A DNA stretch of 64,000 bases from the NCBI GenBank assembly GCA_040390065.1, contig JAZJZE010000009.1:128001-192000 (forward strand), written 5' to 3'. Numbering within the stretch: position 1 is the first letter of the stretch; every line of letters starts with the position of its first letter. The translations under genes and the position numbers were made by a program. The notes beneath the pieces were generated by a model. The model had not been told where the DNA came from, searched no databases, and saw only the letters and a program-made list of their open reading frames with translations. The DNA is from a bacterium. Its GTDB lineage: Archaea > Thermoplasmatota > E2 > JACPAO01 > JAHFTW01. Shown here piece after piece: positions 7,058 through 61,927 of this stretch.

Positions 7058-7207
7058 ATGGCCCCCGACCCCAAGATGGACGTCAACCGCGGCGACAAGG
7101 CCGCCGCCGAGCGCCTTGCGATGCTGAAGGAGTTGGCCAAGATGACGAAGCCCACCGGCGCCTCGGCCAAGGGCAAGGCCGTCGAGAAGCCGGACGAGGA
7201 CGAATAG
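7058..7207 (+). CDS. 49-aa charged small protein (not in the ORF track)
   Basis: MAPDPKMDVNRGDKAAAERLAMLKELAK...EDE*; host-like codon usage; fills the intergenic gap. Confidence 0.55.
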   Translation: MAPDPKMDVNRGDKAAAERLAMLKELAKMTKPTGASAKGKAVEKPDEDE

Positions 7208-7208
7208 T

Positions 7209-8465
7209 CTAGGCCGGATACCGTAGCGGCTTGCACTCGCTCTTCGTGGTGCCGTCGTTCCACGTGTACGTGCCGCACTCGATGACGCCCCGCGCCTGGA
7301 ACGTCAGGTGCACCTGCGCCGTGCGGTCGGCCATCTGCGACGGCACTTGGCCGACCTCCACGCGGACGGCCGTGCCGCCCACCAGCGCCTCGTCCTGGAG
7401 CTCCCATGTGCCGTCCGCGCCGCCGGCGCCGTCCAGCCGCACCCAGCCCGCTGGCGTCTCGATCCAGAAGTGCACGAACGGCTGTGGGCCTGCACCATCG
7501 ACGCGCGCCTCGAGGCGGCTCGTGTTCTGCGGGGCAACCATGGCATCGGTCGTTCCATTGCGTTGCGGCGACACGATGTACAGTGCGCCGTCGCCCTTGA
7601 CGGTCAGGGGCGCCGTCACGTTTTGCAGGGGCACCCAGACGTACGTCCCGGTGCCTGCGTATGCGGGGGCCGGCTGCGAGGGGCTCAGGATTCCTGCCTG
7701 CACGAGGGTCACGACCACGGCGATGGCAGCCATGGCCAAGCCGAGGACGATGGTGCGCCGTCGGCTCGTCACGTCGGGCGGCAAGGGCTGGCCCTTGACC
7801 TGTGCGCGCGGGGCGGGTGCTTCGGTGTCGCGCCGCATGAGGTAGGCCGCAACGAAGACGGCGCCGAAGAAGCCGATGAACAGCGTGGGGATGGCCCACG
7901 GCGGCCAGGAAGGGCGTCCCGACATGGCGAGGCCGACGATGCCGACGAGGCCCATGGCGCCGTAGAGGACCATGCCGCCGCGCCAGCCCGGAGCCAAGCG
8001 GTCGCGGAAGCGGTACGCGGCAAGAGGGCCGACGAGTCCCATCCACATGAGCGAGCCGAAGAGCCACCACTGCGTCGAGTCCGGGCGCTCGTGCGACGTC
8101 AAGGCCACGATGGCACTGGCCCATCCCGCCGCGAGGACTGGGGCGCCAATCGCCGCGAAGATGGCGATGCGTTGCCAGAGCGGGAGGCGCGGGCCGTCAA
8201 CCGTGTCGTTGGGGTCCTGCTGCGGCGCGTTGGAGGCGGGAGACGCGGTCTCGGGGTTGGCGAGGGCCGCGGCGCGCTCGCGCAGGTTGCGCCGAATGAC
8301 CCAGACGGCGAAGGCCAAGCAAGCGACGCCCAGGACGAGCGCGCCGAGGCCCAGCTTCCAGTCGCCTCCGAGGACAAGGTTTGCAACGCCGGCCACCGTC
8401 GCGACGACCCCCAGGTAGAGGTTGCGCATCGGCAATCGCGTCCAGAACCCGGGCGGCTTCTCCAT
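7209..8465 (-). CDS. Multi-pass membrane protein with C-terminal extracellular domain
   Basis: From MEKPPGFW; about 7 TM helices, then a beta-rich domain with a Cys pair. Confidence 0.75.
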   Translation of the reverse strand: MEKPPGFWTRLPMRNLYLGVVATVAGVANLVLGGDWKLGLGALVLGVACLAFAVWVIRRNLRERAAALANPETASPASNAPQQDPNDTVDGPRLPLWQRIAIFAAIGAPVLAAGWASAIVALTSHERPDSTQWWLFGSLMWMGLVGPLAAYRFRDRLAPGWRGGMVLYGAMGLVGIVGLAMSGRPSWPPWAIPTLFIGFFGAVFVAAYLMRRDTEAPAPRAQVKGQPLPPDVTSRRRTIVLGLAMAAIAVVVTLVQAGILSPSQPAPAYAGTGTYVWVPLQNVTAPLTVKGDGALYIVSPQRNGTTDAMVAPQNTSRLEARVDGAGPQPFVHFWIETPAGWVRLDGAGGADGTWELQDEALVGGTAVRVEVGQVPSQMADRTAQVHLTFQARGVIECGTYTWNDGTTKSECKPLRYPA

Positions 8466-8523
8466 CCTAGACGGCTCCAACCACGGGCCGCCCAGTGGGC
8501 CAGCGGTTCTTGGAGGTTGTGCC

Positions 8524-8632
8524 TCAGTATGTCCTGGCAAACCGCAGCGTGTCCTTTGCCTGCTTGGCGCAGACGGCGCACGCGGCTGGCGCGAAGGCCT
8601 CGTCGACGGGGACGCCGAGCGTCTTGATGTCC
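8524..8632 (-). pseudogene. Duplicated 3' end of proS (last 35 codons plus stop)
   Basis: 109 bp with 9 mismatches to 9167-9275; encodes DIKTLGVPVDEAFAPAACAVCAKQAKDTLRFARTY*. Confidence 0.95.
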
Positions 8633-8634
8633 CG

Positions 8635-8763
8635 CGACCTGCAAACAGGTCGATCATTTGCGTCGTGCTGCCTCGCTGCGCTCGGCACCACATAGCGTCG
8701 GGGGGCTGCCGCCCCCCGCCCGTGTCCCCCCGCCGGGGGGCCTGCCGGCCCCCGCGACCCCCA
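8635..8763 (-). mobile_element. Structured dispersed repeat, copy E1
   Basis: Terminal hairpin CGACCTGCAAACAGGTCG at 8635-8652 plus G/C-run hairpins, similar to 60806-60932. Confidence 0.85.
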
Positions 8764-8777
8764 GCAGCCGCTGGATC

Positions 8778-9167
8778 CTACGCCCAAGTCGCTGCGGGGC
8801 GGGGCAACAAGCGCATCACGGATTCGTCATCGCTTCGGGGAAAACGCGTTTCAGCGATGTCAAGGGCGGTCGGCTCGTCGTGCGGTGTCTCGTACGCGAA
8901 ATCCGACCAGACGACTTCGTCCCCAACCTGCGCCACGAGGGCCGCAAGGGCACCGCATCCTTCGTGGCCGCACAAGCCACACGTCGTAATCGTGGTTCGG
9001 CCCGACTTGAATGTAGGGCGTTCGAGAGGGACCCGGAACCAGACAAGGAGCTCGCCGTCGCGGAGCGGTCGCCCGTCAATGACGAAACGCCAAGCCGTCC
9101 GGTCCGGTCGCTCCACGCTGTCGGCCGTTGGGAACGTGTCGGTGTTCGGGACGAGCGCCAGCTGCAT
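8778..9167 (-). CDS. 129-aa cargo protein with CxxCGxxGC motif
   Basis: MQLALVPNT...CGLCGHEGCG...VVWSDF; ATG overlaps the proS TAA (TAATG). Confidence 0.7.
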   Translation of the reverse strand: MQLALVPNTDTFPTADSVERPDRTAWRFVIDGRPLRDGELLVWFRVPLERPTFKSGRTTITTCGLCGHEGCGALAALVAQVGDEVVWSDFAYETPHDEPTALDIAETRFPRSDDESVMRLLPRPAATWA

Positions 9168-10621
9168 TAGTAGGTCCTTGCAAACCGCAGTGTGTCCTTT
9201 GCCGGCTTGCTGCAGACGGCACACGCGGCTGGCGCGAAGGTCTCGTCGACGGGGACGCCGAGCGTCTTGATGTCCAGCGTCTTCTCGACGTTGGCCGCGC
9301 ATTCCGTTCCGCAGATGGGCATGGTGAGGATGTAGCCGACGTTGGCCTTCTGCCCCTCGTCATCGAGGCGCTTGGCCTCGTCGAGGGACTTGGGATGCTT
9401 GATGCGCGTCGCAACGAAGGCGGCTTGTTTGTCGAGGAGCGTTTTCTGGATGCTGGCCAGGACGTCCTTGACGCCTTGCTCCAGGTGGTCCATCGGAATG
9501 GCCTTCTTGCCCTCGCGGCCCATGTCGCGGCGGGCGCTGAAGACGGATTTCTTCTCGACGTCCTTGGGGCCGACTTCGAGGCGCAACGGGACGCCGCGCA
9601 GTTCCCAGTGGTAGTACTTCTCGCCGGCCGCCTTGGCGCGTTCGTCCAGTTCGACGCGGAAGCCCGCGAGGTCCAGCCGGTCGCGCACCGTCTTGCACGC
9701 CGCGAGGACGGCTTCCTCGCTGCCCTTGAAAACCACGGGGACGATGACGACTTGGATGGGCGCGATGTCCGGCGGCATCACCAGGCCGTTGTCGTCGCCG
9801 TGACACCCGACGACGGCACCGACGAGGCGTTCGCTCATGCCGTACGTCGTCTGGTGGCAGAGCTTGTGGCCCTCCGTCTCGGACTCGTACTTCATGTCGT
9901 ACGCCTTGGCAAAGTTCGTGCCGTAGTAGTGCACGGTGGCGCATTGCAGCGTGCGGCCGCTTGGCATGACGACGTCGGCGCCCGTGGAGTCGACGGCGCC
10001 GGGGAACTTGTCCCAGTCCGGCCGCTTCGAGTACAGCGCGGGGAGGGCGAGTTTGGCGTAGACGTGGCGCACGATGTCGAGGTCGAGCGCGACGTGCTCG
10101 CGGGCCGTCTTCTCGTCGGCGAAGACCGAGTGGTCCTCGAAGAAGTGGATCTCCCGAACGCGCATGAAGGCACGCGTCTGCTTCGTCTCGTACCGGAAGA
10201 CGTTGCAGATCTGGTACGTCGTCAGCGGCAGGTCGGAGTGGCTGCGGATCCACAGCGGGAAGATCTCGTACATGGCGCACTCCGACGTGGGGCGCACGAT
10301 CCAGCGCTCGCCTTCCGGCAGTTCGTTGTCGCCGGCATGCGTGACCCAGAAGACCTCGGAGCCGAAGCCCTTGATCTGGTCGGCCTCCTTCATGAAGAGC
10401 TTCTCGGGGATCATGAGGGGGAAGGAGACCTCGTCGTGGTGCGTGCGGCGCATCTCGGCGCGCGTGTAGTCGTCGATGGCCGACATGATGCGTTGGCCGT
10501 AAGGCCGCCAAATGTTCATGCCCTTGATGGGGTACCGCTTGTCCGTGAGTTCGGCGACCTCGACGACCTCATTGTACCACTCCATGAAGTCCTTCGACTT
10601 GGGGACCTGGGTCGCGGGCAT
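9167..10621 (-). CDS. proS: Proline--tRNA ligase (archaeal/eukaryote type)
   Basis: RPTSE, FRYETKQTRAFMRVREI, HQTTYGMSERL, WELRGVPLRLEVG, C-terminal FARTY; TTTTAT box about 25 nt upstream. Confidence 0.97.
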   Translation of the reverse strand: MPATQVPKSKDFMEWYNEVVEVAELTDKRYPIKGMNIWRPYGQRIMSAIDDYTRAEMRRTHHDEVSFPLMIPEKLFMKEADQIKGFGSEVFWVTHAGDNELPEGERWIVRPTSECAMYEIFPLWIRSHSDLPLTTYQICNVFRYETKQTRAFMRVREIHFFEDHSVFADEKTAREHVALDLDIVRHVYAKLALPALYSKRPDWDKFPGAVDSTGADVVMPSGRTLQCATVHYYGTNFAKAYDMKYESETEGHKLCHQTTYGMSERLVGAVVGCHGDDNGLVMPPDIAPIQVVIVPVVFKGSEEAVLAACKTVRDRLDLAGFRVELDERAKAAGEKYYHWELRGVPLRLEVGPKDVEKKSVFSARRDMGREGKKAIPMDHLEQGVKDVLASIQKTLLDKQAAFVATRIKHPKSLDEAKRLDDEGQKANVGYILTMPICGTECAANVEKTLDIKTLGVPVDETFAPAACAVCSKPAKDTLRFARTY

Positions 10622-15240: not shown

Positions 15241-15515
15241 ACCACCTGCGTATCGACGTTGCCCGCAAGAGCCTCCCCCGCCCCCACCATCAACCGAAGC
15301 AACAGAAGCAACCGAGTTGCAAGGCCGCTCGTCAGGCGCCCCTCGGTGGTGGGCACTCGTCCGTGCGAGCGCAAGGCGCGAGCGTAGCGGGGGCGAGGGA
15401 CGCGCAAGCGCCCCCGCGGGGGGACATGGGCGGGGGGCCGAGCCCCCCGCCGCTATGTGGCGCCGCAGAACAGCGGCGGCGCCACGACGCAACTGATCGA
15501 CCTGTTTGCAGGTCG
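15241..15515 (+). mobile_element. Structured dispersed repeat, copy E2
   Basis: Ends GATCGACCTGTTTGCAGGTCG (hairpin 15498-15515); flanked by GACCGG at 15235 and 15515; left boundary inferred. Confidence 0.75.
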
Positions 15516-19731: not shown

Positions 19732-19767
19732 GTCAGGCCTTGCGGAAATCCGGTTTGCGGCGCGCGA
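19732..19767 (-). repeat. Perfect 36-bp duplicate of the 3' end of the crotonase gene at 20568-21350
   Basis: Identical to 20567-20602, including the stop codon. Confidence 0.95.
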
Positions 19768-19781
19768 CGGATGAGATTCCC

Positions 19782-20531
19782 TCACAGGCCTGCCGCCCGG
19801 GAAACGGGCTTCACGCACCTGAAGTCGAGGAGCTGCGTCGTCGAGGTGTTTCCACTCGCGTCCGTCCACACCGTGCGCACGGGGCCGCAAGCTGCCGGGG
19901 CGTACCAGGTCGTCATCGTGCGTTGGAACGTCGGGGTGTCCCACGAGGAGATCTCGGTCACGATCTTGAACGCCGCAAACGTCCCGGCCGGTACGGACAC
20001 CATCTCGCTGCCGACGACGTGGGCGTCCTGCTGCACGTGCCACCCCGCGGCCGGGCCGCGCGAGTCATGAAGCGTACAGGCGTCCGTCCACGCGGCCCCG
20101 ACCCGCAGCGGCCAATGGCGATCTGGGCACGGCGGCGAATAGACGCGGGTCTGCGGGGGGCCCCCGGCGGATGAGCGCTCCTCGAGGTTGGCGTCGTCCG
20201 ACACGCGTTGCCACTTCACGCTGTGGATGGCCGTGTGGGTTCCGTCCCCAGGCTGCCGGTCGATGTCGGTCTGCACACGGGCCGCCGCGTAGGTCGTCCC
20301 GAGGACCGTCCAGTTCTCGAGGGCCATGACCGTGATTTGCGCGTCGTCGCGCATGTCGTTGTACTGGGGATTCGTCTCGATTTCGGATTCGTGCCAGGAA
20401 TCGCCCACCGTGCGGTCCGGGGCTGCCGCGTCCGGCATCACAACCGTCGCGACTTGGCTTTCGCGATGCCCGGTGCAACCCGCCGACGCTGCCGTTGCCA
20501 GAGCGAAACATGCGAGGGCGACGAGCTTCAT
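19782..20531 (-). CDS. Lipoprotein (cargo between direct repeats)
   Basis: SAGC lipobox; VGDSW, VSVPAGTF and WYAP motifs typical of secreted beta-sheet proteins. Confidence 0.8.
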   Translation of the reverse strand: MKLVALACFALATAASAGCTGHRESQVATVVMPDAAAPDRTVGDSWHESEIETNPQYNDMRDDAQITVMALENWTVLGTTYAAARVQTDIDRQPGDGTHTAIHSVKWQRVSDDANLEERSSAGGPPQTRVYSPPCPDRHWPLRVGAAWTDACTLHDSRGPAAGWHVQQDAHVVGSEMVSVPAGTFAAFKIVTEISSWDTPTFQRTMTTWYAPAACGPVRTVWTDASGNTSTTQLLDFRCVKPVSRAAGL

Positions 20532-20567
20532 GGCCGGGCCTACTTTCCTGCCTTCAAAACCATTCGG

Positions 20568-21350
20568 TCAGGCCTTGCGGAAATCCGGTTTGCGGCGCGC
20601 GAAGAAGGCGTCGCGCCCCTCGGCGTGCTCACGCGTGAGGAAGGCTGCAGCTTGCAGGTGCGCCTCGCGCTCCAAGGCTTCGGGGAGCGGCGCCTCGGCG
20701 TTGAGTTGCAAGGCGCGCTTGGACAGGGCGAACGTCGCCGCGGGACCCTCGGCGAGGGCGGCAGCCAGGTGCGCGACGGCGCCGGCCAGCTGTTGTGGCG
20801 GCACGGCTCGCAGCACGAGGCCCCACGCCACGGCGTCCTGCGCGGAGAACGGCGCCGCCGTCCAGGCGAGGTGCTTGGCCCGCTGCAGTCCGAGGCGGCG
20901 CGGCAGCAGCCACGTCGCACCGGTATCAGGGATCAAGCCGACATGCCGAAAACTCAGGGAGAATTGGGCGTCTTCGGCGACGATGGCGAGGTCGCACTGG
21001 AACGCTAGGATAGCGCCAGCCCCGTAGGCGTTCCCCTGCACCTGCGCGATGACGGGTTTGGGCAAGTCGTGCAACGCGAGGACGACCCGGTTGAGGCCGG
21101 TGCGCAGGCGGTGCAGGGTGGCCTGGGCATCGCCCGCAAACTCGCGCATGACTTGGATGTCGCCGCCGGCCGAGAACATGTCGCCGGCCGCCGCCACCAC
21201 GACGACCCGGACGTCTGCATCGTCGCGGGCCGCCTCGAGCGCTTCTGCCAGCTGGCCGAGGGTATCCAGGTCGAGGGCGTTCTTCTTCTCGGGACGCGAC
21301 AAGGTCAGGGTGAGGATGCCCGCGTCGAGACGGGAAGCCAGCGCTGCCAC
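20568..21350 (-). CDS. Enoyl-CoA hydratase/isomerase (PaaG-like)
   Basis: FSAGGD, GLIPDTGATW and EGRDAFFARRKPDF motifs; GTG start. Confidence 0.92.
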   Translation of the reverse strand: MAALASRLDAGILTLTLSRPEKKNALDLDTLGQLAEALEAARDDADVRVVVVAAAGDMFSAGGDIQVMREFAGDAQATLHRLRTGLNRVVLALHDLPKPVIAQVQGNAYGAGAILAFQCDLAIVAEDAQFSLSFRHVGLIPDTGATWLLPRRLGLQRAKHLAWTAAPFSAQDAVAWGLVLRAVPPQQLAGAVAHLAAALAEGPAATFALSKRALQLNAEAPLPEALEREAHLQAAAFLTREHAEGRDAFFARRKPDFRKA

Positions 21351-21390
21351 AGGCCGGCGGAGCCCGTGTCTCTCTTTGGCCGTGTTGGTG

Positions 21391-23238
21391 CTATGCCGTT
21401 GCCCGGCGCGGCGCCTTGGTCTTGCCAGTGGGGCCGGCAACCCGCATCCCGGCAGGCTCGCCGAGGGGGTTCACGGATCCCTTCGACTCGATGTCCACGG
21501 CCACCTCGGCCACGGGCTGGCCCCGCAGCGTTGCGAGCAGTTCGACGAGTCGACCCCGTTCAGGCCCGTCCCGCGGCGCGGCGTCGAGGGCGCTTGCGCA
21601 TGCCTGGTCCGCCTCGTCATGGCGGCCAAGGCGTTCGAGGCACAGGGCACGCTTCCAGGCGGCGTCGGCGCAGCGGGCGGGCTCCACGGCGTCGCGGAAG
21701 GCCGCGAGGGCCTCCTCGTAGAGCGGCAGGGCCACGGCCGGCTTGCCGTTGTGCAGCGCAATGTCGGCCTTCTCGTCCTGGATGAGGCCCCAGAGGTGAC
21801 GTTCGCGCACCTCGGATTGCGGGAACAGCCCGAGGATGCCGAGATACAAGGCCTGGTACCCGGCATCGACGAAGTCGAAGTCGCGCAAGTCGAGGTTCTG
21901 CCGCAGGAGTTCGAGGACCTTTGGCCGTTGGCCGGCGGCGACGAAGTGGTGCATCGCCTCGAGACGCCCCTCGACCGTGCCCTTGGCCACGTAATGTGCC
22001 GCCGCGCGGCCGTGCAGCGTCGCCTTGTCCTCGAGTCTGCTGTAGAAGAAATTCTGCACGACCTCATGCAACTGGAACGTGCCGCGCGCCTCCGAGACGA
22101 GCATGCGTCGCCGCAGCGTGGCGAGAACGGCATCCAGGCGGCGGCGCGACACGGCGGCCAGGTCGGCGGCGCCGAAGCCGGGACGCAGGAGGCTGGCATG
22201 CGACAAGGCGAGGCGTTCGTCGTCGGACAAGCCGTCATGCAGTTCCTGCAGGAGCCAGGTCTCGAGGTCGCGTTCCGGGATGCGGTCGAGGAGGGATTCG
22301 AGGGAGCCTGCCTGTTGGGCCGCCTGGGCCAGCAGTTGCAGTCCGAGGGGATGTCCGCCGACTTCCGCGCGAAGCTTGCCGTAGAGGGCCGCATCGACCG
22401 TGAGCCCGCGGCTTTCCAGGACTGCGGCCGCGTCCGCGTCAGGAAGACCGGAAAGATGCAGGACTGCAAGACCTGGGGTCGCGGGATTGTGGCCGATCCA
22501 TTCGCGGCTTGCGATGACGAGTTTGCCGTGGCGGACGCGGGCGACGGCGTCGGCGAGCAGGTTGCGCACGGCTGGGTCCTCGGCGCGGTGGGCTTCGTCG
22601 AGGATGACGATGCCCGCGTGGGCGTCGATGGCAGCGATGGTGGCGTCGGCGAGTTGCGCGGGGTCGGCGCCGAGGCGTTCCATGAGGGACGAATCGCCGT
22701 ACTGGGCGAGGTGGAGGGCGACCTGGTTGGCGAGCCACGCCACGGATTCGACGCCCCGCAGCGAACGCCAGAAGACGGGGCGACCCTCGGGCTGCGACCG
22801 GGCGTAGCGGGCCAGGAGCGACGTCTTGCCGATGCCGGGCATGCCGAGCACCAGGACGACGGGCTCCGGTCCTGCGAGGCGTGCCAGTTCGCCTTGGCGG
22901 CCGACGAAGCCGGCGTCGTCAGGGATGGGGATCGGCGTGGGGGCGCGTGCAGCACGGGCCTGCGCCTTGCCGACCTGGACGGACAGGCCGGACGGCGTGA
23001 TGCCGATGGTCACGAGGTCGGCGGCGAGCCGGTAGAGCTTGACGTTCTTGCCTTGCCTCTCCCAGCGGCCCTCGACGAGGCCGAGCGATTCGAGGCGCTT
23101 GAGACGCCGGGCCACCTCGGTCTCGGACAAGCCGAGGAGGGCTCCCATGCGGCGCGGGTATGACGGCTCGACGGCGAGCAGCGTCAGCAGGGCCTGGGTC
23201 GACGCGTTGGCGACCTCACGCAGGACCTCCTTGGACAC
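21391..23238 (-). CDS. wHTH-NTPase-TPR (STAND-like) transcriptional regulator
   Basis: N-terminal ArsR-like HTH, FVGR, Walker A GMPGIGKT, Walker B ILDEAH, GGHPLGL, TPR-like C-terminus; GTG start with a TTAAAT box upstream. Confidence 0.85.
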   Translation of the reverse strand: MSKEVLREVANASTQALLTLLAVEPSYPRRMGALLGLSETEVARRLKRLESLGLVEGRWERQGKNVKLYRLAADLVTIGITPSGLSVQVGKAQARAARAPTPIPIPDDAGFVGRQGELARLAGPEPVVLVLGMPGIGKTSLLARYARSQPEGRPVFWRSLRGVESVAWLANQVALHLAQYGDSSLMERLGADPAQLADATIAAIDAHAGIVILDEAHRAEDPAVRNLLADAVARVRHGKLVIASREWIGHNPATPGLAVLHLSGLPDADAAAVLESRGLTVDAALYGKLRAEVGGHPLGLQLLAQAAQQAGSLESLLDRIPERDLETWLLQELHDGLSDDERLALSHASLLRPGFGAADLAAVSRRRLDAVLATLRRRMLVSEARGTFQLHEVVQNFFYSRLEDKATLHGRAAAHYVAKGTVEGRLEAMHHFVAAGQRPKVLELLRQNLDLRDFDFVDAGYQALYLGILGLFPQSEVRERHLWGLIQDEKADIALHNGKPAVALPLYEEALAAFRDAVEPARCADAAWKRALCLERLGRHDEADQACASALDAAPRDGPERGRLVELLATLRGQPVAEVAVDIESKGSVNPLGEPAGMRVAGPTGKTKAPRRATA

Positions 23239-57339: not shown

Positions 57340-57389
57340 TGGGGAAGATGGGAGTTGAACCCACGACCTGGGCATGATGAGTGCCCCGC
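57340..57389 (-). pseudogene. Duplicated 3' 50 nt of tRNA(CAT)
   Basis: 49/50 identity to 57543-57592. Confidence 0.95.
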
Positions 57390-57509
57390 GAATCTGCAAA
57401 CAGGTCGATCATTTCCGTCGTGCGGCGCTCGCTTCGCTCGACCGCGACCTGCAAACAGGTCGATCATTTCCGTCGTGCGGCGCTCGCTCCGCTCGGCCGC
57501 ACATAGGCG
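57390..57509 (-). mobile_element. Structured dispersed repeat E3, two tandem 55-bp end units
   Basis: CTGCAAACAGGTCGATCATTTCCGTCGTGCGGCGCTCGC at 57394 and 57449. Confidence 0.88.
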
Positions 57510-57542
57510 CTCGACACTTCCGTCGTCGACCAGGGAATGCAG

Positions 57543-57616
57543 TGGGGAAGATGGGAGTTGAACCCACGACCTGGGCATTATGAGTGCCCCGCCCTAACCA
57601 GCTAGGCCACTTCCCC
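57543..57616 (-). tRNA. tRNA with CAT anticodon (Ile2 or elongator Met)
   Basis: Cloverleaf GGGGAAG/CTTCCCC-A; anticodon arm GGGCA-CTCATAA-TGCCC; T loop TTCAACT; no encoded CCA. Confidence 0.93.
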
Positions 57617-60659: not shown

Positions 60660-60932
60660 AAAGCCTGCTTCCCCCAGGCCAACGGGCGATTCCTCCTTTG
60701 CTCCGACGGCGGCGGAACACAGATTGCGACGAATCCGTCATGACACGCGCGTAGGCCCCCGGCCGGGGCGAGCTGGTATTGCAAGCGCCTCGGCGCGAGC
60801 ATGCCAGGGGTCGCGGGGGCCGGCAGGCCCCCCGGCGGGGGGAAACGGGCGGGGGGCGGCAGCCCTCCGCCGCGATGTCGCGAGGCGAAGCCGAGGCAGG
60901 ACATCGCAAATGATCGACCTGTTTTCAGGTCG
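60660..60932 (+). mobile_element. Structured dispersed repeat, full-length copy E4
   Basis: Ends AAATGATCGACCTGTTTTCAGGTCG; flanked by GCGCGAG at 60653 and 60932; left half homologous to 63647-63753. Confidence 0.82.
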
Positions 60933-60949
60933 CGCGAGGGCCACCGCGG

Positions 60950-61110
60950 GCCTGAAAGACCCGGAGGCCGCGGAAAAAACCGGAAAGCGACCTTTCCAGT
61001 CCTCGGCGACTTCGCTGTCTTTCAGGCATCGGCGGCCTGGGAGAACCGGAGACGACGGGAGAACAGGAACTCATTCCCGTTCTCTCCACTGGATTCCTGT
61101 TCTCCCAGGC
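60950..61110. repeat. Two adjacent long palindromes
   Basis: GCCTGAAAGAC...GTCTTTCAGGC, then GCCTGGGAGAAC...GTTCTCCCAGGC (copy 2 of the 1511 family). Confidence 0.8.
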
Positions 61111-61204
61111 CTCCCACACCCAGCCACGCGGCCACCCAACCTGCGCCGCCGCCATCGCAGGTTGACGTGGCCGGCCATCGGACTTGTGTCGCGTGGCCGA
61201 TGCG

Positions 61205-61927
61205 TCAGGCCATGACGGTCGCTGGCCCTTGATCCACGAGCCGGGGCCCGCCCGCCGTGACGATGCGCAGCCGGCCTTGCTCGTCGACTCCATCCGCCAC
61301 GCCCTGCACATCATGGCCACCGGACGGGACGGACACGCGTTTCCCCTTCAGCCAGTCACGTGCGCGGAACGCGGCAAGCACCGACGTCGGGTCGCGGGCC
61401 CGCAACGCCTCGAGCCAGACTCCGACCCGGTCGAGCATCAGCGACTCCAGATCGGGGATGCAGGATTCGCAGTGCAGCGCCTCCTCCAGCGTCGTGGCCG
61501 TCGTCCCCAGGCCGTTTGGGAAACGCGAGGCTGCGCCGTTGACGTTCACGCCGATGCCGACGACGAGAAAATCCAGTTTTGGCCCCGTCCACTCGCCTTC
61601 GACGAGGATGCCGGCAATCTTGCGGTCGCCTACGAACACGTCGTTCACCCACTTGAGTCGCGGCTCGACGCCCGCCACCTCGAGGGCATCACCGACGGCG
61701 TTGCCCATGGCCAAGGTCAGCAGGCGGGCATCGGACAGGTCGCGCACGACGAAGGAAAGATACAATCCGCCCTTGGGCGCGTGCCAGGTGTGGCCGCGTT
61801 GGCCCCGCCCCGCCGTCATTTCTTCCGCCACGATGACGGAACCTTCGGGTGCGCCGGCGCGGGCCCGCTTGCGGGTCTCGTCCATGGTCGATGCGCAGGA
61901 CGCGACGCGGTCGACCACCCACTTCAT
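61205..61927 (-). CDS. birA: Biotin--protein ligase
   Basis: STMD, GRGQRGHTW, LKWVND, KIAGIL and GIGVN motifs. Confidence 0.95.
   Translation of the reverse strand: MKWVVDRVASCASTMDETRKRARAGAPEGSVIVAEEMTAGRGQRGHTWHAPKGGLYLSFVVRDLSDARLLTLAMGNAVGDALEVAGVEPRLKWVNDVFVGDRKIAGILVEGEWTGPKLDFLVVGIGVNVNGAASRFPNGLGTTATTLEEALHCESCIPDLESLMLDRVGVWLEALRARDPTSVLAAFRARDWLKGKRVSVPSGGHDVQGVADGVDEQGRLRIVTAGGPRLVDQGPATVMA

Follow-up and report, generated by a model that had tools for sequence, protein, structure and literature searches.

How does an essential gene come to have two C-terminal ends, one of them in use and the other stranded beyond a small foreign gene? This question is raised by the prolyl-tRNA synthetase gene (proS) of an uncultured Thermoplasmatota archaeon, which lies in a 64,000-nt stretch (the window) of contig JAZJZE010000009.1 in assembly GCA_040390065.1 (positions 128,001 to 192,000). 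The last 109 nt of proS occur twice in direct orientation. The copy that ends the working gene is referred to as R1 and the orphan copy as R2, and between them lie a short open reading frame (ORF), the cargo, and a hairpin-rich dispersed repeat, the element. Our preferred answer, to which we give slightly better than an even chance, is additive integration, in which a segment from a close relative displaced the C-terminal part of proS. The genome to which the window belongs (G000) is 2.68 Mb long in 50 contigs, is 89% complete, and has a GC content of 66.8%. Comparisons were made within a relatives set of 41 genomes including G000, within the genus (13 genomes), and across 301 genomes of the phylum. 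Coordinates are window positions unless they are prefixed by a contig (e.g., C5:296971) or a genome (e.g., G005).

The working gene encodes a canonical enzyme. Its product matches the Pfam domains tRNA-synt_2b (1.8e-25), HGTP_anticodon (1e-17), and ProRS-C_1 (1e-08), and it is 80 to 89% identical to the ProRS of nine congeners, with which it aligns end to end. Its start (MPATQV) agrees with that of relatives, and it terminates in a tyrosine (...RFARTY), an end that is the same in 11 congeners and is that of an archaeal/eukaryote-type enzyme. A repeat search returned a direct repeat family of 117 nt (8520-8636 and 9163-9279) with 91% identity, the MAFFT alignment of R1 and R2 contains nine mismatches and zero indels over the 109 nt up to and including the stop codon, and BLAST of the flank recovered the pair with an E value of 1.4e-39. 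Four of the differences are synonymous third-position changes (TGT/TGC, ACA/ACG, GCA/GCC, and ACC/ACA), three codons change a residue (T/A, S/A through 2 nt, and P/Q), and the stop codon is swapped, being TAA at 9167-9169 in R1 and TGA at 8524-8526 in R2. The two copies also share an identical stretch of 34 nt (8599-8632 = 9242-9275), and R2 retains similarity to ProRS-C_1 with an E value of 1.5e-4, which is below the cut-off. When the last 60 residues were used as the query, none of the proS loci of 29 relatives showed a second C-terminus, and only the window's own locus did.

In the direction of proS transcription, the order is R1, cargo, element, and R2, which then runs on into the downstream intergenic DNA. 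The ATG of the cargo shares one base with the TAA of proS (TAATG), and this stop-start overlap is made by two of the nine differences between the copies, since the orphan reads TGAGG instead. An initial annotation of this DNA, made from the sequence alone, had pointed out the indel-free duplicate with its nine mismatches, the classes of codon change, and the overlapping start codon. All three were reproduced, the duplicate by repeat search, MAFFT, and BLAST alike. That annotation had overlooked the element, which lies between the cargo stop and R2 and was found by BLAST of 8400-9400 against the genome itself (match at ~8630-8767). The copy at proS folds at -48.8 kcal/mol (z -3.67). It begins with a conserved hairpin-bearing "head" (Table 1), which is followed by more GC-rich hairpins, and the cargo occupies the place of the element's usual tail, which is missing here. 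The head starts hard against the inner boundary of R2. This head/orphan junction is exact at proS, as it is at every other repeat-flanked locus. At five head junctions that were examined, 0 to 3 nt are shared, and the donor side is always the same hairpin end. In variant heads, compensatory changes in the stem preserve the hairpin.

Heads were counted genome-wide with up to five mismatches allowed, and they are restricted to this lineage. A head is present in 7 of the 40 relatives searched, and its first 22 nt occur exactly in 12 stretches among ~185,000 species genomes, all of them in metagenome-assembled genomes (MAGs) of this lineage, two of which bear the title Halobacteriales from their submitters. 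The exact 22-nt head has no match in a viral contig collection. The opposite end of the element does not carry the head in inverted form, and terminal inverted repeats (TIRs) are hence lacking; the flanking repeats are variable, with lengths of 23 to 111 nt. The element thus has neither the TIRs nor the short fixed-length target duplication of a DNA transposon or of a miniature inverted-repeat transposable element (MITE).

Table 1. Features of the proS locus, the tRNA-Met locus of the window, and loci of G000 with the sequence beside the head repeated past the element
Feature	Position	Strand	Flanking repeat	Identity	Basis
proS, archaeal-type prolyl-tRNA synthetase, 484 aa + TAA	9167..10621	-			Pfam domains, congener matches
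R1, functional last 109 nt of proS, TAA stop	9167..9275	-			Repeat search, alignment, codon comparison
Cargo ORF, 129 aa (P0001), TAG stop at 8778-8780	8778..9167	-			ORF with ATG on the proS stop
Dispersed GC-rich, hairpin-rich repeat copy (element)	8635..8767	+			Own-genome BLAST, many copies at 72-89%
Element head: hairpin with 7-bp stem and 4-nt loop, then GATCATTTG	8635..8660	+			23 heads counted in G000 (≤5 mismatches)
R2, orphan copy of the last 109 nt of proS, TGA stop	8524..8632	-			Repeat search, alignment, ProRS-C_1
Multi-pass membrane protein gene, no known family	7209..8465	-			ORF; no Pfam match at cut-off
tRNA-Met instance: tRNA 57543-57615, orphan 57340-57389, element copies 57390-57506; repeat 57340-57389 / 57543-57592	57340..57615	-	50 nt	98%	BLAST, repeat comparison
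proS layout			107 nt	92.5%	
Repeat-flanked locus	C1:22026		39 nt	100%	
Repeat-flanked locus	C2:89937		77 nt	95%	
Repeat-flanked locus (tandem)	C5:296971		35 nt	100%	
Repeat-flanked locus	C6:10133		62 nt	95%	
Repeat-flanked locus	C11:6647		50 nt	92%	
tRNA-Ser (two tandem units)			57 nt	98%	

The layout found at proS recurs. A gene end, an element with its head distal, and an orphan gene end follow one another at 11 loci in G000, including the tRNA-Met gene of the window. For 10 of the 23 heads (eight loci; Table 1), the sequence to the left of the head is repeated just past the element, with repeats of 35 to 107 nt; three additional loci with the same layout have variant heads (C5:78730, C5:256908, and C5:313587), and the remaining 13 heads lie in varied contexts with no flanking repeat. 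Relatives share the layout, with repeats of 23 to 111 nt (e.g., 111 nt at 99% identity at tRNA-Ser in G002). At five protein genes, the order is constant when read with the gene (intact end, element with its hairpin distal, orphan end, old downstream DNA), and the similarity between intact and orphan ends stops within ~10 nt of the stop codon. Three of these five pairs disagree in the stop codon or in the final residues (TAA/TGA, TAG/TGA, and ...NGASP-stop/...NGA-stop), and the orphan at C5:313587 has later gained an in-frame stop. The tRNA-Met orphan is a copy of the 3′ part of the gene with one mismatch, and two partial copies of the element lie between the two, with the head against the orphan; here, the repeat terminates at the discriminator base. 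Similarity that ends near a stop codon or the end of a tRNA is what would be expected if homology stops where an imported cassette begins. The tRNA-Met orphan and its element are found in 2 of the 13 genus genomes, G000 and G012. Both orphans have C instead of A at position 37, and that of G012 is well formed and corresponds to the 3′ half of another tRNA-Met allele, with a distinct, well-paired T-arm and acceptor strand.

Is R2 a second allele or a decayed duplicate? Codon differences were pooled over the five intact/orphan pairs of protein genes in G000 and compared with 10,000 simulations. Of the codons that differ, 18 do so synonymously and 8 nonsynonymously, and third positions account for 20 of the 29 nt differences. 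Random decay predicts 22 to 24% synonymous changes, and none of the 10,000 simulations reaches 18; a model of in situ divergence, with a freely drifting orphan and an intact copy confined to synonymous changes, predicts 36% (P = 0.0002). The proteasome-like gene is the strongest single locus, with nine synonymous to three nonsynonymous differences. Each of the 11 congeners is closer to R2 than to R1, by 1 to 5 of the 109 nt, and the proteasome-like orphan is nearer than its functional copy in 8 of 11 congener comparisons, tied in 1, and further in 2. R2 is therefore less derived than R1, which argues against a drifting pseudogene, whose copy should be the more derived of the two. The nine differences between R1 and R2 compare with 23 to 37 differences over the same 109 nt between either copy and any congener, implying that the donor was far closer to G000 than any species representative is. 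Sliding identity to eight congeners revealed no clear recombination breakpoint in proS, in a comparison that is powerless at their divergence of 10 to 35%.

The evidence from the whole family above all thus supports the view that the two ends of proS differ as alleles would, and not as a gene and its decaying copy. The initial annotation had proposed just this, namely that both ends are functional alleles and that the incoming DNA brought its own proS end instead of duplicating a target site, and it is mainly the pooled pattern of the five loci that bears the proposal out. A randomly decayed copy of the resident end, which it had named as evidence to the contrary, is not what R2 looks like given its closeness to every congener. 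The further suggestion that one side was joined at a point defined by the element fits the hairpin-headed repeat, since the end of this repeat lies exactly against the orphan at every such locus.

The locus as assembled is also seen in sequence reads, for which Logan unitigs of the probable source run were used. These tile 8300-9500 with zero differences. A 62-nt unitig (8603-8664) spans the orphan/hairpin junction, and another of 539 nt (8733-9271) reaches from the element across the cargo into R1. In a second study, one run yielded an identical contig of 151 nt over 8687-8837, so that the element-cargo junction is present in two independent data sets. Two further runs of the source study (X3 and X4) and run X2 cover almost none of the stretch and are uninformative on absence.

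These findings can be brought together in a model in which the incoming segment would have consisted of the last ~110 nt of a relative's proS, a passenger gene placed on the proS stop, and the hairpin-rich element. The imported part of proS would pair by homology with the resident gene, so that the working gene now ends in R1 with its TAA stop, and the second join would be set by the terminal hairpin of the element, ~112 nt upstream of the resident stop. Because the join falls at that distance, the resident tail, R2 with its TGA stop, would persist as an orphan before the old downstream DNA. The incoming molecule could have been linear, as in homology-facilitated illegitimate recombination, or a small circle made up of gene end, cassette, and element, as in a Campbell-type integration. 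We infer both the direction of the exchange (R1 imported and R2 resident) and the route of recombination.

Several observations weigh against such a displacement. When proS is taken alone, the four synonymous to three nonsynonymous codon differences do not reject random decay (P ~0.08-0.10), and the polarity of the nine differing sites, where the congener majority state is in R2 at six and in R1 at two, with one ambiguous, favors an ancestral R2 non-significantly. Some flanking repeats are identical (39/39 and 35/35 in G000, 59/59 and 37/37 in another set of loci), as a target duplication predicts. The acceptor strand of the G012 tRNA-Met orphan is unpaired with the present 5′ half of the gene, which fits only a replacement of the whole tRNA. 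No genome was found with the donor layout (proS, cargo, and element with no orphan) or with an insert-free proS of the R2 type. There is no recombinase ORF between the repeats, none of the six tyrosine-recombinase (Phage_integrase) matches in G000 (C5:244361, C4:106228, C5:218668, C5:216451, C11:123914, and C2:19929) is near a head, and a displacement model offers no explanation for the presence of one element family beside many different gene ends. Finally, the unitigs fit an integrated form and an insert-free R2 chromosome with a 643-nt circle alike, because R1 and R2 share the exact 34-nt stretch in which the unitigs end.

Part of this would be accounted for by a target duplication, in which the element and the cargo were inserted at the proS stop after the strands had been cut 30 to 110 nt apart, the ends being identical at first and diverging in place. 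Repeats whose lengths vary from 23 to 111 nt and of which several are 100% identical, an element with one exact and one variable end, and many targets for a single family would all be simpler under a transposon-like process of this kind. We regard it as unlikely nonetheless, since the pooled synonymous excess rejects in situ divergence, the orphans are closer than the functional copies to the genus consensus, and the repeats end at a stop codon or the end of a tRNA in six of nine loci examined, which staggered cuts do not predict. Moreover, Y1_Tnp, the TnpB zinc-ribbon domain, Cas1, and RVT_1 each have no match in G000 (89% complete), and we know of no prokaryotic transposon that makes such duplications. 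Direct repeats of the 3′ end of a tRNA or protein gene are a hallmark of integrative elements, and the locus could instead be a scar left by site-specific integration, in which a tyrosine integrase recombined an attP containing the proS 3′ end with the end of the resident gene. The two copies would then be attL and attR, most of the element having been lost or never present, and a derivative without its own recombinase could have been moved in trans. The repeats, which contain the 3′ end of proS, resemble attL and attR, tRNA-Met and tRNA-Ser are among the targets, tandem arrays exist at tRNA-Ser, at C5:296971, and in G022, the genome does have its six tyrosine-recombinase matches, and the identical 34-nt stretch might hold a core site. 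What makes this origin quite unlikely is that the 643 nt contain no integrase, that at least 11 targets in one genome would demand equally many attP specificities, and that the inserts measure merely 73 to 536 nt. Furthermore, usual tyrosine-recombinase core sites have overlap regions of 6 to 8 bp, unlike the hairpin, which is a 4-nt loop between 7-bp arms.

The ambiguity of the unitigs raises the prospect of an assembly or population artefact, i.e., an insert-free R2 chromosome accompanied by a 643-nt circle or tandem of R1, cargo, and element, or a mixture of two strains, merged by the assembler into a single path. The exact 34-nt node allows either pairing, and the unitig depth of the cargo (10.8) is slightly under that of the flanks (12.7 and 15.4). 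A molecule with the junction exists either way, however, since the 62-nt unitig has the hairpin joined to an internal position of proS; a 608,712-nt contig crosses the region, no joint bypassing the insert was reported for the source run, the same layout is found at about a dozen loci of G000 and in independent MAGs, and a 643-nt circle at chromosomal copy number is improbable in itself. An artefact is therefore very unlikely, and the integrated form is much more likely in view of the long contig and of the recurrence of the layout in independent MAGs. In an RNA-mediated origin, a full-length copy of a leaderless cargo transcript ending in a 3′ hairpin would have been integrated by target-primed synthesis, with template jumps to host RNA ends accounting for repeats that stop at gene ends. 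In its favor, the boundaries of the insert coincide with the cargo ATG and with the terminal hairpin's end, the insert has one fixed and one variable end, the flanking repeats differ in length, and the tRNA-Met repeat stops at the mature 3′ end. Divergence of the allelic kind would be unexpected had the ends been copied from the host's own mRNA, and RVT_1, absent from G000, is likewise absent from its 12 congeners and present in just 1 of 40 relatives (these genomes being incomplete), so that we hold this origin to be highly improbable. A diversity-generating retroelement was rejected as well: A is present at five of the nine differing sites in R1 and at two of nine in R2, no reverse transcriptase was found, and tRNA genes are targeted too.

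Returning to displacement by a segment from a close relative, we searched for an enzyme that might mobilize the element. Paired heads in G005 and G022 enclose ordinary housekeeping genes, with no mobilizing enzyme among them. A tentative idea, which we consider more doubtful than not, is that the hairpin-headed repeats represent a new archaeal mobile module that would dispense with a transposase of its own, have one end set by a structure-specific cut or start of transfer at the hairpin, move between related genomes along with an adjacent gene end and sometimes a passenger gene, and land by homology to that gene end.

What, then, was delivered to proS? The TAATG overlap leaves no spacer, and hence no room for a separate promoter of the cargo; cotranscription with proS and translational coupling to it are therefore probable. 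The GC content of the cargo at third codon positions (GC3), 0.75, is lower than that of proS (0.91) and of the downstream gene (0.89). Within the relatives set and the 301 phylum genomes, the latter searched with single-protein scans, a homolog was found in its own genome only and in none of the 12 congeners. Judging by this confinement and by a GC3 below that of the host, the cargo is foreign to the lineage. One close relative, 58% identical, is encoded on a 1.4-kb metagenome contig. The cargo belongs to a family of proteins of ~145 residues, which comprises 192 representatives with a threshold of E≤1e-3 and 646 clusters with E≤1e-5; no curated Pfam or NCBIfam family was matched by any of 42 members that were scanned. 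The family is mostly bacterial among named records, and its invariant residues are C63, C66, C71, G72, and W87.

Functional clues to the cargo are few. PADLOC had no match for four family members, a sequence profile search of the PDB gave a single chance-level match (E 0.36), and a protein atlas listed unnamed bacterial clusters only. The structure model (predicted local distance difference test score of 83.2) retrieved nothing from the PDB with Foldseek at E≤0.001, and VIA-align found no significant fold match, with a best Z of 4.0. CdiI chains were aligned in the noise range (5ffp_B with Z 3.8 over 100 residues at a root-mean-square deviation [rmsd] of 4.7; 4ntq_B with Z 3.4 over 96 residues at an rmsd of 4.0). 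One family member, P0227, has a C-terminal CdiI_3 domain (2.7e-30), the sole precomputed Pfam domain among the 120 matches listed, and one member from Pseudomonas is grouped with Imm33-like and DUF695 genes in an array on the same strand. The other seven family loci inspected have no linkage to toxin or immunity genes, and the window cargo adjoins proS, not a toxin gene. These observations hint weakly at a link between the family and the immunity proteins of polymorphic toxin systems. Apparent relatives in Methanospirillum were discarded, since the one inspected (L048) of five Methanospirillum/Methanoregulaceae matches is a beta-carbonic anhydrase. On a low-GC bacterial metagenome contig (L056, 4806-6873), a cargo-family gene lies directly upstream of a class II aminoacyl-tRNA synthetase gene (tRNA-synt_2b and HGTP_anticodon), an adjacency that is probably a coincidence.

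The surroundings of proS vary as well. The membrane protein gene begins 58 nt past the stop of R2, and the DNA downstream of proS is non-syntenic among the 11 congeners examined. A conserved small ORF of 49 aa (...LAMLKELAKMTKPTG...) at 7058-7207 converges on the proS region. In G006 and G012, its counterpart is the immediate downstream neighbor of proS. In G010, an inserted segment of ~600 nt with a short AbrB/SpoVT-like ORF, which was assigned by eye, comes between the two. This placement indicates that an ancestral neighbor of proS has been displaced by insertions in several species. In two congeners, proS itself is unusual: the genes of G005 (C4:263397-265220, L035) and G001 (C60:273-1991, L037) each match in two blocks (residues 1-247 and 250-484), which are ~370 nt and ~240 nt apart, respectively, within single open frames of 667 and 596 codons. 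These genes carry an in-frame insertion, possibly a mini-intein or an inserted repeat.

Elsewhere in G000, elements and repeats of this general kind are found in other arrangements. Two more copies of the element in the window (15393-15515 and 60807-60937) have no flanking repeats; the second is embedded in a longer unit common to C9:83063 and C17:93453, and 60938-61218 belongs to a different, more abundant dispersed repeat family with more than 25 matches in the genome. Copies are also found on contig 17, which carries the nop5 and fibrillarin genes. An enoyl-CoA hydratase gene on the minus strand (20568-21470) has a second copy of its last 33 nt and stop codon (36 nt at 100% identity, 19732-19767 and 20567-20602), with one inserted DUF3108-like gene (19782-20567) between the copies and a 3-hydroxyacyl-CoA dehydrogenase gene beyond. 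The layout of this locus is that of proS (gene end, cargo, orphan end), with no hairpin element at the junction. Dozens of other nearby direct-repeat pairs (35 to 150 nt long and 50 to 260 nt apart) surround small hairpin-rich inserts, for example at C1:288174, C1:325704, C5:87218, C5:101191, C9:251773, C9:471381, C9:577507, and C43:26465, and some of these inserts carry the second module of the element with different heads. Long flanking repeats thus seem to be general for small inserts in G000.

How does this architecture relate to known systems? Integrative elements that target the 3′ ends of tRNA and protein genes supply a replacement end within attP; derivatives of them that lack a recombinase are known as cis-mobilizable elements (CIMEs). 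The loci described here share with both the direct repeats of the target 3′ end, a gene kept intact by its new end, and tandem accretion at some sites, and they differ in that no integrase is present in or near the insert, the inserts are so short, the targets are so many, and one end is defined by a hairpin while the other is variable. Hairpin repeat families of prokaryotes include repetitive extragenic palindromic doublets forming hairpins (REPINs) with RAYT, the palindrome-associated transposable elements (PATEs) of IS200/IS605, and MITEs. Like these, the element is short, dispersed, non-coding, strongly folding, and lineage-restricted, with compensatory changes in its hairpin; unlike them, it has no TIRs, no short fixed target duplication, and no Y1 or TnpB gene that we could find, and nothing in those families corresponds to its long flanking copies of gene ends. 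For archaea, Cossu and colleagues are said to have described in 2017 that the integrase of Thermococcus pTN3 catalyzes an exchange resembling homologous recombination on short identical segments. Such an enzyme would provide a route by which ~100 bp of identity direct integration, and no integrase of this type is linked to the elements of G000.

The literature, with subscription journals and supplements outside our coverage, yielded no description of this element or architecture in archaea. An element described in connection with C/D-box small RNAs (PMC6009581) came into question and is a different, TIR-bearing one. The closest parallel is found in the effector-immunity loci of Rhs, contact-dependent inhibition (CDI), and type VI secretion system (T6SS) proteins, where C-terminal displacement and orphan arrays have been explained by homology-facilitated illegitimate recombination by Kirchberger et al. 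(2017; PMC5361080), who cite Jackson 2009, de Vries and Wackernagel 2002 (PMC122324), and Prudhomme 2002 (PMC122325). The resemblance extends to a module anchored by upstream homology, a resident 3′ part kept as a downstream orphan, a small passenger gene after the new end, and copies that differ like alleles. Unlike in T6SS/Rhs displacement, the anchor is an essential archaeal housekeeping gene, not a toxin gene, and only ~110 nt are displaced. Unlike both that process and classical homology-facilitated illegitimate recombination, the non-homologous join is always at the end of one hairpin element, next to many unrelated genes, tRNA genes included. What sets these loci apart from known systems is that an essential archaeal gene serves as the target, that the insert is tiny, and that one dedicated hairpin module is found at the join for many unrelated genes.

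If the displacement model is correct, an uncultured archaeal lineage appends foreign genes to essential ones and leaves the latter unbroken, by exchanging the tail of the gene for that of a relative with a passenger gene attached; the old tail stays behind as a scar. From such scars, gene exchange among close relatives could be read and dated in a group without genetics, and the proS locus would illustrate a route by which a bacterial-type gene is wired to the expression of an aminoacyl-tRNA synthetase. For annotation, the scars serve as a warning that fragments of tRNAs and other genes beside such elements may be displaced alleles and not decayed duplicates. The conserved 22-nt head would mark the joining point and should be a handle for finding the enzyme. 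Should the hairpin-headed repeats indeed be a mobile module, it would constitute a general system of cassette delivery and gene-end replacement for essential genes and tRNAs in Thermoplasmatota.

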